Shown here: one piece after another, positions 35,917-42,550 of the stretch
How the letters are laid out: each line of letters starts with the position of its first letter
Position numbering within the stretch: position 1 is the stretch's first letter
DNA from: Escherichia coli
GTDB taxonomy: Bacteria > Pseudomonadota > Gammaproteobacteria > Enterobacterales > Enterobacteriaceae
Strand: one strand, 5' to 3'
DNA: 64,000 bases
Assembly: GCF_003334815.1 (NCBI RefSeq)
Contig: NZ_QOWO01000011.1
Notes under the pieces: generated by a model
What the model saw: the letters and a program-made list of their open reading frames with translations, nothing else
Databases searched by the model: none
Told to the model about the DNA's origin: nothing
Program-made: the position numbers and the translations under genes

Positions 35917-37290
35917 TTAATGGTTGGAGAACCAGTTCAGTTTATCGCGCAGGCCAACAACCCGACCAATAATAATTAGCGATGGACTGTTCATTTGCTG
36001 CGCCAGTTCTCCCAGCTGTGTGAGCGTACCGTCAATCACGCGCTGCGTGACTGCCGTACCGTTTTCGACAATTGCCACCGGCATTTCGCCTGGCATTCCG
36101 TGTTCAATCAGCTTTTGCTGAATAGTCGCGGCCTGATTCAACCCCATATAGAACACCAGCGTCTGTTTTTCTGCCGCCAGGTTTTCCCAGTCCAGCTCGC
36201 CACCGGTTTTTAAGTGTCCGGTAATTAAGCGTACGCTCTGGGCATAATCGCGATGCGTGAGTGGAATACCCGAATAGGCAGAGCAACCAGAAGCTGCGGT
36301 AATACCCGGAACCACCGAGAACGGAATACCCGCGTTGCACAGTGTTTCCAGCTCTTCGCCACCACGGCCAAAAATAAACGGATCGCCACCTTTCAGCCGC
36401 ACCACGCGTTTGCCTTTTTGCGCTTCCCGCAGCAGGATCTGGTTAATCTCTTCCTGGGGTACGCAGTGGTATCCCGCGCGTTTGCCGACGAAAACACGGT
36501 CCGCATCGCGGCGTACCAGATTCATAATATCGTCAGAAACCAGACGGTCGTAGACCACCACATCTGCCTGCTGAATTTGTTGCAGTCCTTTCAGTGTCAG
36601 CAGCCCGGCATCGCCCGGACCTGCACCAACCAGCACCACTTCACCGCGATGGTCGAGCGGTTCGTTGATTAACTGTTCGGTCGTTTCAGTAATGGCTTTC
36701 TGATCGTTGTTTGCCAGCGACTGCGCCAGGCGGTCGTTAACGAACAATTTCTCCCAGAAACGGCGACGCTCACCCATCGTGGCGAACTGTTGTTTCACTC
36801 GCCCGCGTAATTGCCCGGCGTATTTCGCTACCTGGCCCAGATGTAACGGCAGCAGTGATTCAAGTTTTTCGCGCAACAGGCGTGCCAGAACCGGAGAGGT
36901 GCCGCCAGAGGAGACCGCTACCATGAGCGGTGAGCGGTCAATAATCGACGGCATAATAAAGCTGGCGGCTTTCGGCGCATCGACCACGTTACAGAAGATG
37001 CGACGAGCTTCAGCGGCTTCGCTGACGCGCTGGTTAAGCGCGTCATCATCCGTCGCTGCAATCGCCAGCCAGCAGGTGTCGAGAAGGCTTTCATCAAATG
37101 GCCCTTCGACGAGGGTTAACATGCCTGCATCTGCCCATGCGGTGAACTGTGGAATAAACGCTAATGCATTCACCGTTAAGCGAGCGCCTGCGTCTAACAG
37201 CAACCTTGCTTTGCGTTCCGCGACATCACCACCGCCGACAATCAGACAGTCGCGATCGCGTAATTGGCAAAATATAGGCAAATGATCCAC
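35917..37290 (-). CDS. cysG: Siroheme synthase (uroporphyrinogen-III methyltransferase / precorrin-2 dehydrogenase / ferrochelatase), 457 aa
   Basis: ORF track; GTG start; SAM-methyltransferase motif [15 protein letters not shown]. Confidence 0.96.
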
Positions 37291-37308
37291 GTAAAAACCC
37301 CTTAGTAA

Positions 37309-38115
37309 TTAACCGGCAGCCGTTTCAGTTTGATTAAATTTGTCCGCAACCGGACGATTCGCTTTCGGCGTAGCATACCAATAACCCAATCCCATGAATA
37401 CGGCACCTGATAAAGTATTACCCAGCGTCACCCACAGCAGGTTATGACCAATACCCGCCAGCGTGTAGGCTTCGCTGTGGTTGCCGAACCAGGAGAGCGC
37501 GAACAGCGTCATGTTAGCGATAGAGTGCTCGTAGCCGGACGCGATAAATGCCAGCAGACACCACCAGATAGCGATAAATTTCGCCGCCCCTTCAGTGCGC
37601 AGCGCCATCCAGATTGCCAGGCAAACCAGCCAGTTACACAATGCACCTTTGAAGAAGAGTACCATTGCCGGTGCAGTGGTTTTAGCCAGCGCGACGGAGT
37701 GAACGATGCTGGTATCTACCGGCAGCAGGCTACCGCCGCCCCAGCTATAGAGCATGGCAACGAAGACGGAACCGACCAGGTTACCCAGCCAGGTTTGCGG
37801 CAGGATTGCCCACATTTGCCCGTGGCTGATGCTGCCCGCTTTTACCCCAAAGGTGAGGAACATGGTGTGTCCGGTGAACAGTTCAGAACCGGCGATAATC
37901 ACCAGCGTTAAGGCGATACCAAAGGTCGCGCCCATCACCAAAGGGCGTACGGATGGATCGAGCAAATTACCGAGCGTGAAAATCAGGATGATCCCAAGAC
38001 CCACATACGCGCCCGCCATGGCGGAGCTGACCCAAAAGCCGAGCGGGTTATTTGCCGACAGGCGTGCAATGCGCGCAGCGTTAGCCGCACACTTATTAAT
38101 AGTGTCTGTAAACAT
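37309..38115 (-). CDS. nirC: Nitrite transporter (formate/nitrite transporter family), 268 aa
   Basis: ORF track; FNT-family membrane protein. Confidence 0.95.
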   Translation of the reverse strand: MFTDTINKCAANAARIARLSANNPLGFWVSSAMAGAYVGLGIILIFTLGNLLDPSVRPLVMGATFGIALTLVIIAGSELFTGHTMFLTFGVKAGSISHGQMWAILPQTWLGNLVGSVFVAMLYSWGGGSLLPVDTSIVHSVALAKTTAPAMVLFFKGALCNWLVCLAIWMALRTEGAAKFIAIWWCLLAFIASGYEHSIANMTLFALSWFGNHSEAYTLAGIGHNLLWVTLGNTLSGAVFMGLGYWYATPKANRPVADKFNQTETAAG

Positions 38116-38202
38116 TTGATTATCCTTTAAAAAATAAAAACAAAAAATAAAACAAAAAGTTTAAAAAATGTCCTGCAATATACCGAAGATTATTACAGGA
38201 CC

Positions 38203-38231
38203 ATGCAAAAAGGGGAGGCATTGCGCCTCCC
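38203..38231 (-). terminator. Intrinsic terminator-like hairpin between nirD and nirC (possible intra-operon attenuator)
   Basis: Stem gggaggc (38213-38219) / gcctccc (38225-38231), loop attgc; on the minus strand it is followed by cTTTTTgcatgg. Confidence 0.5.
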
Positions 38232-38240
38232 GTTAAAACA

Positions 38241-38567
38241 TTAACCGCGCAGCTGCACCACGCCGTCTTTCACTCGCGCTTCGTAATGTTTGACGGAAAA
38301 CTGTTCGTCTTCCATGCACAAGCCGTCGCTTAAGCGAAAACGCTGTTTTTTCAGCGGGCTGGCGACCCACAGCTCGCCCTGGTGTTCCGCAATCAGTCCG
38401 CGTGACAGCACGCTGGACTCGAAGAACGGGTCGATGTTGCTGATCGCAAACACCTGATCGCTGTGATACGGGCGGAAAATCGCGACCTGCTCGTCACCTA
38501 ACAGCGCGCAGACGCCGGTTTCAGGCAGGATGTCATCGATTTTGCAGATGTCTTTCCACTGGCTCAT
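38241..38567 (-). CDS. nirD: Nitrite reductase [NAD(P)H] small subunit, 108 aa
   Basis: ORF track; start overlaps nirB stop (ATGA). Confidence 0.95.
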   Translation of the reverse strand: MSQWKDICKIDDILPETGVCALLGDEQVAIFRPYHSDQVFAISNIDPFFESSVLSRGLIAEHQGELWVASPLKKQRFRLSDGLCMEDEQFSVKHYEARVKDGVVQLRG

Positions 38568-41107
38568 GCGTTGTCCTCCACCAGAGTTACTGGGATACGT
38601 TCATACGGCGTTGCCGGACGGTGCTGTTCGCGCTCTGGCACCATCTGCACGTTCGGGTCACGCTTGTCGCTGTTGATGAAGTGTTTGAAGCGAGTCTGCG
38701 CAGACGGCGTATTGACCGTTTCAGTCCACTCACACAGTACCGCTTCACGCAGGCGCGCCATCTCTTCTTCCAGATGTGCGTTCAGCCCCAGTTTGTCGTC
38801 AATGATCACTGCTTTCAGGTAATCGATGCCGCCTTCGAGGTTTTCTAACCACGGTGCGGTACGCGTCAGTTTGTCGGCAGTACGGATGTAGAACATCATG
38901 AAGCGGTCGAGATATTTGATCAGCGTTTCGCGATCGATATCCGCCGCCAGCAGATCCGCATGACGCGGTTTCATGCCGCCGTTACCGCAAACATACAGGT
39001 TCCAGCCTTTTTCAGTGGCGATAATACCCACGTCTTTACCCTGAGCTTCTGAACATTCACGGGTACAGCCGGAGACACCGAACTTCATTTTGTGCGGCGT
39101 ACGGATGCCTTTGTAGCGGTTTTCCAGTTCCACGCCGAGGCCGACGCTGTCGCCAACGCCGTAGCGGCACCAGGTGCTACCCACGCAGGTTTTCGCCATA
39201 CGCAGTGCTTTCGCATAGGCATGACCGGTTTCGAAGCCGGCTTCAATCAGCTGACGCCAGATCTCCGGCAGATCGTCTTTCTGTGCGCCAAACATCGCCA
39301 GACGCTGGGAGCCAGTGATCTTGGTGTAGAGATTAAATTCACGCGCGATACGACCTACCGCCATCAGCCCTTCCGGGGTGATTTCACCGCCCGGAGAACG
39401 CGGGATCACCGAGTAGGTGCCGTCTTTCTGGATGTTAGCGAGGAAGTTGTCGTTAGAATCCTGCAGCGGAGTATGTTCCGGCTTCAGAATGTATTCGTTC
39501 CAGCAGGAGGCCAGCAGCGAACCGACGGTTGGTTTACAAACTTCACAACCGTAGCCTTTGCCGTGTTTCGCCAGCAGTTCTTCGAAGGTTTTAATGCCTT
39601 CAACGCGGATCAAATGGAACAGTTCCTGACGCGAATAAGCAAAGTGTTCGCACAGGTTGTTGTTAACTTCGATGCCCTGTTTCGCCAGTTCCGCGTTCAG
39701 TACCTGAGTGACCAGCGGGATACAGCCACCGCAGCCAGTACCCGCTTTGGTTTCAGCTTTCAGCGCCGCAACTGTGTGGCAGCCTTTGTTGATGGCAGCA
39801 ATCAGATCACCTTTGGTGACGTCGAAGCAGGAGCAGATTTGCGCGCTGTCCGGCAGTTTATCAACACCGATAGACGGCTTGCCGCTACCCGAGTGTGCTG
39901 GCAGGATCAGGGAATCCGGGTTTTCCGGCAGTTCGATAGCGTTCAGCACCAGTTGCAGCAGGTTACCGTAGTCGCTGGTATCGCCCACCAGTACCGCACC
40001 GAGCAGGGTTTTGTTGTCTTCGCTGACAATCAGGCGTTTGTAGATCTCTTTACTTTCGTCGAGGTAAACGTAGCTACGTGCGCCAGGCGTGCGACCGTGC
40101 GCATCACCAATACCGCCTACGTCTACGCCCAGCAGTTTCAGCTTGGCGCTAAGGTCAGCACCTTCAAAGGCGTTTTCGCTACCGAGAATATGGTCAACGG
40201 CGACCTGCGCCATTTTGTAGCCAGGTGCTACCAGACCAAATACACGGTTGTTCCAGCTTGCGCATTCACCGATGGCGTAGATATCCGGATCGGAAGTCTG
40301 GCAGGAATCATTAATGACAATACCCCCACGCGGAGCAACGTCCAGACCACACTGGGTTGCCAGCTTATCGCGCGGACGGATACCGGTAGAGAAGACGATA
40401 AAGTCGACTTCCAGTTCGCTGCCGTCGGCAAAACGCATGGTTTTACGCGCTTCAACACCTTCCTGCACAATCTCAAGGGTGTTTTTGCTGGTGTGAACGC
40501 GCACGCCCATACTTTCGATTTTGCGACGCAGCTGCTCGCCGCCCATCTGATCAAGCTGTTCTGCCATCAGCATAGGGGCAAATTCGATAACGTGGGTTTC
40601 AATACCTAAGTTTTTCAGCGCGCCTGCGGCTTCTAGACCTAACAGGCCGCCACCAACAACGGCACCGCGTTTGCTGCGACGGGCGCAGGATTCAATGGCG
40701 TTGAGGTCTTCAATAGTGCGATAGACAAAGCAGTCCTGAGTATCAGAACCTTTGATTGGCGGGATCCACGGGTAGGAACCGGTTGCCATGATCAGCTTGT
40801 CATAAAAAACGGTACGTCCGGCGCTGGAGTGAATCACCTTCTCCTGACGGTTGATGGTGATAGCGCGTTCGCCGACCAGAACTTTGATGCCGTGTTTCTC
40901 GTAGAAGCCTTCGCGCACCAGCGACAGCTCTTCGGCGGTGTGGTGAGAGAAGTAAGACGAGAGGTGTACGCGGTCATAAGCGATGCGCGGTTCTTCACAG
41001 AAAACGGTAATATCAAAGTTGGCCGCATCAGATTTATCAAGAAGATCTTCGATAAAGCGATGGCCGACCATACCGTTACCGATAATTGCGAGTCTGACTT
41101 TGCTCAT
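38564..41107 (-). CDS. nirB: Nitrite reductase [NAD(P)H] large subunit, 847 aa
   Basis: ORF track; N-terminal FAD/NAD Rossmann motif IIGNGMVG; sirohaem/Fe-S domain. Confidence 0.97.
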   Translation of the reverse strand: MSKVRLAIIGNGMVGHRFIEDLLDKSDAANFDITVFCEEPRIAYDRVHLSSYFSHHTAEELSLVREGFYEKHGIKVLVGERAITINRQEKVIHSSAGRTVFYDKLIMATGSYPWIPPIKGSDTQDCFVYRTIEDLNAIESCARRSKRGAVVGGGLLGLEAAGALKNLGIETHVIEFAPMLMAEQLDQMGGEQLRRKIESMGVRVHTSKNTLEIVQEGVEARKTMRFADGSELEVDFIVFSTGIRPRDKLATQCGLDVAPRGGIVINDSCQTSDPDIYAIGECASWNNRVFGLVAPGYKMAQVAVDHILGSENAFEGADLSAKLKLLGVDVGGIGDAHGRTPGARSYVYLDESKEIYKRLIVSEDNKTLLGAVLVGDTSDYGNLLQLVLNAIELPENPDSLILPAHSGSGKPSIGVDKLPDSAQICSCFDVTKGDLIAAINKGCHTVAALKAETKAGTGCGGCIPLVTQVLNAELAKQGIEVNNNLCEHFAYSRQELFHLIRVEGIKTFEELLAKHGKGYGCEVCKPTVGSLLASCWNEYILKPEHTPLQDSNDNFLANIQKDGTYSVIPRSPGGEITPEGLMAVGRIAREFNLYTKITGSQRLAMFGAQKDDLPEIWRQLIEAGFETGHAYAKALRMAKTCVGSTWCRYGVGDSVGLGVELENRYKGIRTPHKMKFGVSGCTRECSEAQGKDVGIIATEKGWNLYVCGNGGMKPRHADLLAADIDRETLIKYLDRFMMFYIRTADKLTRTAPWLENLEGGIDYLKAVIIDDKLGLNAHLEEEMARLREAVLCEWTETVNTPSAQTRFKHFINSDKRDPNVQMVPEREQHRPATPYERIPVTLVEDNA

Positions 41108-41165
41108 TTTTGCCTCGATTTCTTTTCTATTACCGCCTACCTTAACGATTCAGCAACCCCGCTTA

Positions 41166-41179
41166 TTGATGTAAATCAA
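41166..41179 (-). promoter_or_regulatory. FNR binding site of the nirB promoter (TTGATttacATCAA on the coding strand)
   Basis: Perfect TTGAT-N4-ATCAA inverted repeat centred about 65 bp upstream of the nirB ATG; matches the known pnir FNR site. Confidence 0.85.
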
Positions 41180-41192
41180 ATTCACCTTTATA

Positions 41193-41208
41193 TACTCCTT
41201 AATGGGTA
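41193..41208 (-). promoter_or_regulatory. NarL/NarP 7-2-7 site of the nirB promoter (TACCCATtaAGGAGTA)
   Basis: Two inverted heptamers matching TACYYMT, centred 28 bp upstream of the FNR site centre. Confidence 0.75.
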
Positions 41209-41368
41209 TATTGCTGATTTGTATAAATTTTCTTAAGTCACGGAATTGTCTGATATTTCATGTTTGTGCAAAAAATAGACAAAATGAGCGGGTTTATAGA
41301 AATAGATGCACGTAGCGGGGGAAGAGAGGAAAAGGCCGGACGACGATAGTGCCGTCCGGCATGAGCAA

Positions 41369-42550
41369 TTAATGAGAGGTCAGGGTGTTATGCTGACGGT
41401 GACGGCTGACGAAACCTAACAGGAAGCACATCACAAAGACGACAGCGTACAGACCGTTTGCTGTAAGCAGTGCCGCCTGCGGACCGCTATGTTCAACGAT
41501 CGGGCCGGTAACCACAAAGGTCAACATAGTACCGATGGTTCCGCAGGTCAGGACAAAGTTAACCAGTTTTGGCGACGGTACTTTGGTCTGCTGTGAACCC
41601 AGGGTGATGATGGTGGTATAGATCGCGCTGGAGAAGAAGCCCAGAGCGAGAATTGACCACGCCATATGTGCTGGTGTTCCGGTGTTAAAGACGTACATCA
41701 GAATCGCAGCCAGACCAGCCAGTACGGTCAGAATGCGTTGCAAATCAAAGAAGCGAAGAATAAAGCTGAACGCCCACATGCCGACCATGTATGACATCCA
41801 GAAGTTACTCACCAGCGTGCCCGCGTCGTTCAGGCTCATGCCCAGGCCTTTGGCATACTCAGGCACCCAGGAGATAAAACCTAACTGACCGAGGATGTAG
41901 CACAACGCCGCAACAGAGAGAAACAGTACGCCGATCCCCCACTTTTCTTTCTCTACCGGAGCATCCGTTTTTGGCGCATGTTTGCCCAGCGCCGGGAACT
42001 CACAGCCGAAGGTCAGAATAAAAATAGCGACATACACCAGCCCGATGCAGGCATAAACCCAGTACCACTCAATGCTGCGCGCCAGTAGAAACGCGGCGAT
42101 CATTGGGAAAATCATCCCAGCCATACTGAAGAAGGAGTCGGTAAATAACAGGCGGGAACCGCGCTGACGCCCTTCATACATTTGTGTTACCAGGAATGTA
42201 CCAATCGACATGGTGATGCCGCTGACCACCCCGAGAATGAACATCGCCGCCGAGAACAGCGCCAGGCTGTGGCTGAACATCAAACCGGCAACCGCCAGCA
42301 CCATCAGGAGAAAGCCAAAACGTAACTGCGTTTTCAACGGGACGATTTCCATCAGCCAGGCGTTGAGGAAGATAGAGATTAAAATGCCGGCGTTGAGGAA
42401 GGTGAAGGTATTACTCATACTGGAAACAGGCAGATTGAAATAATCGGCGATATTTCCCATCACCATCCCGGTGACAATAACCAACGCACCAGTCAGTGCG
42501 TAGGAGAGAAAGCTAATCCATGTGAGCTTGATGCGATTGCTGTTAGTCAT
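41369..42550 (-). CDS. tsgA: MFS-family membrane protein TsgA (YhfC), 393 aa
   Basis: ORF track; polytopic membrane protein. Confidence 0.92.

Follow-up and report, generated by a model that had tools for sequence, protein, structure and literature searches.

The nirD-nirC spacer of Escherichia coli, a probable ortholog of the Salmonella operon-internal terminator and processing module with a second hairpin found in Escherichia

Genes and features of the nirD-nirC region

The 64-kb stretch of E. coli DNA analysed here (referred to throughout as the window) carries on its minus strand four ORFs of 847, 108, 268 and 457 aa, which a sequence-only reading of the window had assigned to nirB, nirD, nirC and cysG, an assignment borne out by both the ORFs and the RefSeq gene names (Table 1). 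A 551-nt query across the region matched all 5426 complete E. coli genomes, with the flanking genes named nirD and nirC in RefSeq, and the four gene names nirB, nirD, nirC and cysG are likewise given in 5426/5426 of these genomes. The spacer is identical to that of K-12, as a 128-nt spacer query gave 100% identity with K-12 MG1655 derivatives and BL21(DE3). Folding of the whole spacer gave a predicted free energy of -35.7 kcal/mol (z = -4.9), with none of 200 shuffled sequences being as good.

The GC stem (gggaggc/gcctccc) followed by CTTTTTG directly 3' of nirD is present exactly as the sequence-only reading had described it (38231-38213 and 38212-38206), and the A-rich string which it had placed at 38131-38160 is also real, albeit off by 1-2 nt, since the 31-nt string is located at 38129-38159 and the tract continues to 38168. 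The second hairpin, the target site of the small RNA NarS, the 33-codon ORF and a function for the A/T tract were all absent from that reading.

Table 1. Features of the nirBDC-cysG region in the window, with positions counted from the first letter of the window
Feature	Position	Strand	Basis or remark
nirB	41107-38564	-	ORF and RefSeq
nirD CDS	38241-38567	-	stop codon TAA at 38241..38243
nirD-nirC spacer	38116-38240	-	125 nt, 69% A+T
Hairpin 1, GGGAGGC-GCAAU-GCCUCCC	38213..38231	-	begins 9 nt past the nirD stop codon UAA
33-codon ORF	38120..38221	-	ORF list; AUG in the loop of hairpin 1
Short U-run after hairpin 1, C-UUUUU-G	38206..38212	-	read from the sequence
Hairpin 2, GUCCUGUAAUAAUCUUCGGUAUAUUGCAGGAC	38170..38201	-	folding
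U-rich mRNA tract (A-rich on the plus strand), U6-AAAC-U5-G-U4-A-U6-G-U5-A-U6	38129..38168	-	40 nt
Predicted NarS target AAAGGAUAAUCAAAU over the nirC Shine-Dalgarno sequence and start codon, nirC -13 to +2	38114..38128	-	complementarity
nirC CDS (nitrite transporter)	37309..38115	-	gene that the element would limit
cysG	37290-35917	-	ORF and RefSeq

The 33-codon ORF (MPPLFAWSCNNLRYIAGHFLNFLFYFLFLFFKG) ends 4 nt before nirC and is intact in K-12-type E. coli, with a Phe/Leu-rich predicted peptide. It is probably the historical "nirE", for which Harborne et al. reportedly did not find translation in 1992. The intact frame from ATG to stop in K-12-type strains would fit with a small hydrophobic protein, as would the title of the 1992 operon paper, which counts five ORFs as cited in PMC7038943. 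However, only 6-19 codons of the frame are left in E. albertii and other Escherichia, Salmonella and most Citrobacter have no ATG at this position, the start codon is placed in a stable hairpin loop without a Shine-Dalgarno sequence, and there is no RefSeq annotation at this ORF, which together make such a protein extremely improbable. As it is unconserved, the ORF was rejected as a gene, and we consider it to be a by-product of the AUG in the loop of hairpin 1 and the U-rich tract.

Elsewhere in the window, a strong terminator-like hairpin of 10 bp, eight of which are G-C (GCCGGACGGCACTATCGTCGTCCGGC followed by CTTTTCC), is located on the minus strand at 41335-41360, between a 393-aa ORF (41369-42550) and the nirB promoter region, and presumably terminates transcription of the upstream gene. 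Just downstream of cysG, at approximately 35650-35725, 41 of 45 nt are A or T, making this the second most A+T-rich stretch of the window. A search of positions 35000-42000 against Rfam with a permissive threshold gave sub-threshold matches only (sroE, RF00371, with 22 bits vs 51 and E = 0.14, and IsrM, mir-370 and others), which were rejected as chance.

Conservation and covariation of hairpin 1

Hairpin 1 has a stem of 7-8 bp (7 bp plus a possible closing G-U pair) containing six G-C pairs, with a predicted free energy of -13.6 kcal/mol, and shows two characteristics of intrinsic terminators, namely a GC-rich stem-loop on the transcribed strand and a short U-run immediately 3' of it. By itself such a terminator-like pattern is not unusual, with 11 sites in 6.1 kb vs 7.3 ± 2.8 in shuffled sequences, while the stability of the 41-nt segment comprising hairpin 1 and its flanks (-15.8 kcal/mol) is moderately above that of shuffles (z = -2.9, 3/200 shuffles as good).

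For the comparative analysis, NirD was used as query to obtain 80 loci, one per species, from across the Enterobacteriaceae, and the sequences from the nirD stop codon to the nirC start codon were compared. Hairpin 1 was found directly after nirD in Escherichia, Citrobacter, Salmonella, Klebsiella, Leclercia, Silvania, Kosakonia, Phytobacter, Siccibacter, Atlantibacter and others, and in nearly all cases a T-run comes after it. In an alignment of 36 sequences, 93% of the cells in the 8-pair helix were paired, compared to 50-69% with the 3' partner slid to other positions, and 18 cells contained double-sided changes vs 5.0 ± 1.7 in column shuffles, with none of the 500 shuffles reaching 18. The compensatory exchanges were seen at two pairs, with G-C/C-G at the basal pair and A-U/G-C at the fourth. 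Because of this conservation with covariation across genera, hairpin 1 appears to be more than a chance structure, with the comparative evidence rather than the folding statistics of the E. coli sequence being decisive.

The presence of the hairpin is linked to that of nirC. A GC-rich hairpin with a T-run directly after nirD was found in 45 of the 51 loci with nirC (a T-run in these being at least four T in the 8 nt after the hairpin), vs 4 of the 29 nirBD-cysG loci without nirC. The corresponding odds ratio of approximately 47 ignores phylogeny, and one ancestral deletion removing nirC and the hairpin together could also give this co-occurrence. In Enterobacter, Kluyvera, Pseudocitrobacter, Lelliottia and others, nirC is absent at this position and cysG is located 106-344 nt after nirD, and hairpin 1 is missing in most of the nirC-less loci (L029-L035, L040-L057, L060, L065, L069, L075 and L076).

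Orthology with the Salmonella intra-operonic terminator

The nirD-nirC spacer of Salmonella SL1344 has been described as containing an "intra-operonic terminator" by Wang, Chao, Matera, Gao and Vogel (Nucleic Acids Res 2020, PMC7038943). Northern blots detected a weak 5.4-kb nirBDC-cysG RNA next to nirBD (~2.8 kb) and nirC-cysG (~2.5 kb) RNAs, as well as a 1.4-kb cysG RNA coming from cysG's own promoter, and 5' RACE identified several processed 5' ends in a uridine-rich region which starts at the nirD stop codon (PMC7038943). Upon inactivation of RNase E the full-length RNA increased and the nirC-cysG RNA decreased, while deletion of the stem-loop and U-track lowered the levels of nirBD transcripts, raised those of nirC-cysG, and reduced the repression of a nirDC-sfGFP reporter by NarS from approximately 30-fold to approximately 5-fold (PMC7038943). 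The deletion phenotype was also seen with a plasmid reporter with a heterologous promoter, and the U-stretch was proposed as a possible Hfq site, with the authors being unable to separate true termination from protection of 3' ends after RNase E cleavage (PMC7038943).

Alignment with S. enterica subsp. arizonae and diarizonae showed that the E. coli hairpin 1 is identical to the Salmonella stem-loop in 18 of 19 nt and is equally far from the nirD stop codon, and for the Salmonella-type stem-loop (GGGAGGCGCAACGCCUCCC) we computed a free energy of -14.8 kcal/mol, with the published value being -14.9. The location in the same operon, at the same site after the nirD stop codon, of a near-identical stem-loop with the same predicted stability argues that the E. 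coli nirD-nirC spacer is in all likelihood the ortholog of the published, experimentally supported Salmonella element, and hence a real, functional and already known operon-internal terminator and processing module. By analogy with Salmonella the element would be more than a terminator, as together with the U-rich tract it would form a module for both processing and sRNA access. For E. coli, the literature searched did not contain experiments addressing this spacer.

The likeness between the two species extends to the U-rich region downstream of the stem-loop, which is split by hairpin 2 in E. coli, and to the same predicted NarS target over the nirC Shine-Dalgarno sequence (AAAGGAUAAUCAA-AUG). 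There are also differences: the U-run following the hairpin is longer in Salmonella (C-UUUUUU-G-UAUUUUUUU) than in E. coli (C-UUUUU-G), as in the latter the tract is interrupted by hairpin 2, an Escherichia-specific hairpin of 32 nt without counterpart in Salmonella. In addition, the Salmonella U-tract is located approximately 200 nt from the NarS site because of an intervening ERIC-like element, whereas the long U-tract of E. coli abuts the NarS site.

The Salmonella data also bear on the alternative that the spacer holds an internal nirC promoter, with nirC-cysG being a primary transcript. The sequence TGTAATAAT at 38196-38188, within hairpin 2, resembles an extended -10 element and would be the candidate, but this motif is confined to the insertion found only in Escherichia, and a promoter scan detected nothing σ70-like on the spacer's coding strand. 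Furthermore, the 5' ends upstream of Salmonella nirC were reported as RNase E-dependent and processed (monophosphate) rather than primary (PMC7038943), making an internal nirC promoter highly improbable.

The U-rich tract upstream of nirC

The tract preceding nirC, A-rich on the plus strand and U-rich in the mRNA, is the most A-rich stretch of the window at lengths of 30, 45 and 60 nt (26/30 A), and nowhere else in the window do five homopolymer runs of 5 nt or more fall inside 60 nt. T-richness of the coding strand before the nirC Shine-Dalgarno sequence recurs across genera (median 48% T vs 18.5% A), with the composition being kept and the sequence not. The exceptions are the ERIC-bearing spacers, in which the T-tract is located 5' of the insertion.

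The conservation of this strand bias argues for a role in RNA or in termination, and not for a role as duplex DNA. The presence of five A-runs of at least 5 nt in 40 bp, an arrangement unique in the window, is what would be expected if the tract acted at the DNA level, either as curved A-tract DNA or by binding H-NS, Fis or IHF. This is very unlikely, however, as the bias is strand-specific and retained in the other genera as coding-strand T, the runs are spaced 5-10 nt apart and lack helical phasing, and the Salmonella deletion phenotype was reproduced on the plasmid reporter, away from the native promoter (PMC7038943).

With regard to the RNA, the RN|WUU motif was present at 7.4% of the positions in the U-rich stretch vs 1.9% in the background, and in Salmonella the counterpart of this region is where the RNase E-dependent 5' ends map, and NarS control requires it (PMC7038943). 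By analogy, the E. coli U-tract probably combines the U-tail of hairpin 2, a region for RNase E entry and cleavage, and a candidate Hfq site. The tract is also polymorphic in length among E. coli strains (38129-38168 compared with L083 and L086), strain 214-4 having one additional T and strain B25FEP a deletion of 11 nt, which suggests that there is constraint on its composition and not on its exact sequence.

A second hairpin in the Escherichia spacer

The predicted free energy of hairpin 2 is -14.9 kcal/mol in K-12 and reaches -17.8 kcal/mol in other Escherichia, thus equalling or exceeding that of hairpin 1. It is also hairpin 2, and not hairpin 1, which is followed by the long U-run, as its 3' flank consists of A-UUUUUU and a further 34 nt of U-rich sequence. 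Two observations against a terminator role are that it is long and A-U-rich, and that it was missed by a simple terminator scan. Hairpin 2 is present in one copy in each of the 5426 E. coli genomes, and was also found in E. albertii and E. whittamii. When aligned with the short spacers of S. enterica diarizonae, Klebsiella grimontii, Huaxiibacter and others, hairpin 2 falls wholly within a gap of approximately 33 columns, which indicates that the U-tract was unbroken in the ancestral spacer. The alignment thus points to an ancestral layout of hairpin 1, long U-tract and Shine-Dalgarno sequence, into which hairpin 2 would have been inserted specifically in Escherichia.

Two alleles of hairpin 2 were found, a K-12 type and a type present in E. 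albertii and some divergent Escherichia, and these have unrelated loops and share the outer stem. This stem is kept between the alleles by G-C/A-U, G-C/U-A and U-G/C-G exchanges, which represent only one or two evolutionary events and hence constitute modest evidence. The commonest E. coli allele (AAUAACC) is more stable than that of K-12 (AAUAAUC), with -17.5 vs -14.9 kcal/mol.

Hairpin 2 and the spacer were also considered as a dispersed palindromic repeat (REP/BIME, ERIC or MITE-like), and this was rejected, as the median number of sites per genome was one across the 5426 genomes. Among the other species, the middle of the nirD-nirC spacer is an insertion hot-spot, with spacer lengths ranging from 67 to 402 nt (loci L006-L027, L037, L058, L066 and L070-L080). 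The Citrobacter spacers contain what we take to be REP/BIME-like elements, and those of S. enterica arizonae, C. youngae, Phytobacter and Leclercia what is presumably an ERIC-like element, with both names based on the known consensus sequences, while Buttiauxella and Cedecea have other palindromes in the spacer (CCCTCTCCC/GGGAGAGGG).

In E. coli, hairpin 2 most likely functions as a second, tandem attenuator or as a stem protecting the 3' end. A more far-reaching and tentative possibility is that it has remodelled the ancestral terminator, as a tandem attenuator or as a 5'-terminal protective stem on the processed nirC-cysG mRNA, and has shifted the long U-tract, the candidate Hfq/RNase E site, from a distance of approximately 200 nt, as in Salmonella, to a place next to the NarS site. 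If true, this would have changed how the control of nitrite import is shared among intrinsic termination, Rho termination and repression by NarS in E. coli. Conversely, hairpin 2 and the exact T-tract may be functionless, which we regard as doubtful but conceivable: the hairpin would then be the fixed remnant of an insertion in an insertion-tolerant spacer, and the T-runs would drift by slippage. Such a remnant would be in line with the palindromic insertions in the same spacer of other genera, with the absence of hairpin 2 outside Escherichia, and with the indels in the T-tract among E. coli strains, including the B25FEP deletion. It is less easily reconciled with the presence of the hairpin throughout the 5426 E. 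coli genomes as well as in E. albertii and E. whittamii, and with an outer stem kept between alleles with different loops, albeit in one or two evolutionary events.

The NarS target site in E. coli

NarS is cut from the narK 3' UTR and pairs with positions -12 to +1 of Salmonella nirC, and support for NarS-nirC pairing from E. coli RIL-seq has also been given (PMC7038943). In E. coli, narS (b4813) is annotated downstream of narK in NC_000913.3, and a search for exact complementarity showed its seed AUUUGAUUAUCCUUU to be a perfect 15-nt complement of 38128-38114 (nirC -13 to +2), with this being the single occurrence in the window. The nirC ribosome-binding site and start codon come right after the U-rich tract, and the predicted NarS site, which appears intact in E. 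coli, directly abuts that tract. An RNAduplex comparison of full-length NarS with the whole leader gave meaningless global A/U pairing. A weak helix between the U-tract and the nirC Shine-Dalgarno sequence was not distinguishable from shuffles (z = -1.9, 10/200). The narS gene of E. coli K-12 (L087 2338-2521) has an annotated length of 184 nt, with an ERIC-like palindrome (CCCCAGTCACTTACTTTAGTAAGCTCCTGGGATTCA) preceding the seed, which fits the 170-nt insertion mentioned in PMC7038943.

Polarity at the nirD-nirC junction

Published DirectRNA-seq data of E. coli MG1655 gave 586 reads upstream and 24 reads downstream of the nirD-nirC junction in untreated cells, and 920 and 149 reads, respectively, with bicyclomycin (PMC7815308, supplementary file 2). 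Transcript abundance on the two sides of the hairpin, a comparison proposed in the sequence-only reading, is clearly unequal in these aerobic cultures, and the suggestion made there of a plausible intrinsic terminator cutting read-through into nirC and cysG is supported by this drop in coverage as well as by the deletion phenotype of the Salmonella ortholog. The drop is approximately 24-fold in untreated cells, and since bicyclomycin raises read-through 4-fold, much of the aerobic polarity is Rho-dependent. The 149/920 ratio with bicyclomycin leaves an approximately 6-fold drop which is Rho-independent, and which is consistent with an intrinsic terminator and/or differential mRNA stability, while proving neither.

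The same study places the peak of a Rho termination region at MG1655 position 3497031, 29 nt into nirC and corresponding to approximately position 38087 of the window, with a Rho score of 3.95 (p = 6e-12) and a low-resolution position derived from 800-nt windows in aerobic cultures (PMC7815308). This region would be expected if polarity in E. coli were mainly Rho-dependent, with Rho loading on the long untranslated leader and the poorly translated start of nirC, and the hairpins being secondary. We consider this unlikely, as the downstream to upstream ratio is still only 0.16 with bicyclomycin, the spacer is U-rich with 14% C and 17% G and hence a poor Rho-loading site, and the position of the region is not only imprecise but also based on aerobic data alone.

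A further Rho termination region is found on the opposite (plus) strand at MG1655 position 3496855, approximately position 38263 of the window and antisense to the 3' end of nirD, with 262/12 reads in untreated cells and 405/66 with bicyclomycin (PMC7815308). This implies an antisense transcript which runs through nirC and the spacer before Rho stops it shortly after its entry into nirD. The only promoter-like site found by the scan on the antisense strand is at 37614-37642.

No 3' ends within the spacer are listed in the curated aerobic E. coli Term-seq tables of PMC7815308, nor do the TERMITe and SMRT-Cappable-seq supplements have nirD or nirC entries. Since the operon is weakly expressed under aerobic conditions, the missing Term-seq 3' end is weak negative evidence. 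It does fit with the hairpins being RNA-stability elements only, where RNase E would cut the U-rich leader, the stems would block 3'-exonucleases and the nirBD mRNA would outlive the nirC mRNA, as do the increase in full-length mRNA and decrease in nirC-cysG upon RNase E inactivation in Salmonella (PMC7038943) and the short and interrupted U-run of the E. coli hairpin 1 (5 U followed by GCAUGG), which is weaker than that of Salmonella. Nevertheless, a role restricted to stability is rather unlikely, as the conserved unit is hairpin 1 with its T-run (45/51 loci), which is the signature of an intrinsic terminator and more than a protective stem, and as coverage still drops approximately 6-fold with Rho inhibited. 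The termination and protection roles are also not mutually exclusive. The preferred reading is the combined terminator and processing module, in which termination and processing at these exact sites in E. coli would occur by analogy with Salmonella.

A model for the E. coli module and comparison with known systems

From the combined data we propose that transcripts starting at the FNR-dependent nirB promoter would meet the GC-rich hairpin 9 nt past the nirD stop codon, where part of the RNA polymerases may stop. The RNA resulting from read-through would have a long, ribosome-free, U-rich leader to be cut by RNase E, after which the hairpin or hairpins would shield the 3' end of the nirBD half, while the nirC-cysG half would be the substrate for NarS, pairing over the nirC ribosome-binding site. 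The net result would be an abundant NirBD enzyme and a scarce NirC nitrite importer, while cysG would be expressed independently from a promoter of its own within nirC. In Escherichia, insertion of the 32-nt hairpin in the U-tract would have placed the long U-run after hairpin 2, adjoining the NarS site. The anatomy of the spacer, its orthology, the covariation, the co-occurrence with nirC and the complementarity to NarS form the basis of this model, and the RNA isoforms, the deletion phenotype and the dependence on RNase E and NarS, which were shown in Salmonella by others (PMC7038943), would apply to E. coli by analogy.

Such a module would set the ratio between the cytoplasmic nitrite reductase NirBD and the nitrite importer NirC, and would be the cis element allowing the narK-derived sRNA NarS to repress only one internal cistron, thus limiting nitrite self-poisoning during nitrate respiration. 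The principle of repression of a single cistron has already been published for Salmonella, and the added value of the E. coli data is modest, consisting of a module which appears intact in the model organism and contains an extra, undescribed hairpin, together with a hint from published data of a Rho-dependent component in E. coli, which was not addressed in the Salmonella study. The Escherichia-specific hairpin 2 and this apparent Rho-dependent component are the undescribed details, with the rest already being known.

Next to its Salmonella ortholog, the module resembles several known systems. It shares the combination of a GC-rich stem and a U-run, placed between cistrons of very different required expression, with canonical intrinsic terminators which act as partial operon-internal attenuators. 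It differs from these in its short U-run of 5 U preceded by a C, and in being coupled to RNase E processing and sRNA control, and it is evidently leaky, as nirC and part of the cysG expression depend on read-through. A second likeness is that to REP-type protective stem-loops, as in malE-malF and in iscR-iscS with RyhB, where the upstream cistron can be shielded by a stable 3'-terminal stem during decay of the downstream RNA (a parallel drawn in PMC7038943); here the difference is that hairpins 1 and 2 are single-copy, and that REP/BIME-like elements are located in the Citrobacter spacer and not in that of E. coli. Finally, there is a parallel with glmUS, where RNase E cuts in the spacer of a polycistronic mRNA, followed by the action of an Hfq-dependent sRNA (GlmZ) on the downstream half (PMC7038943), although NarS represses rather than activates its target, and the terminator-like hairpin belongs to the nir module.
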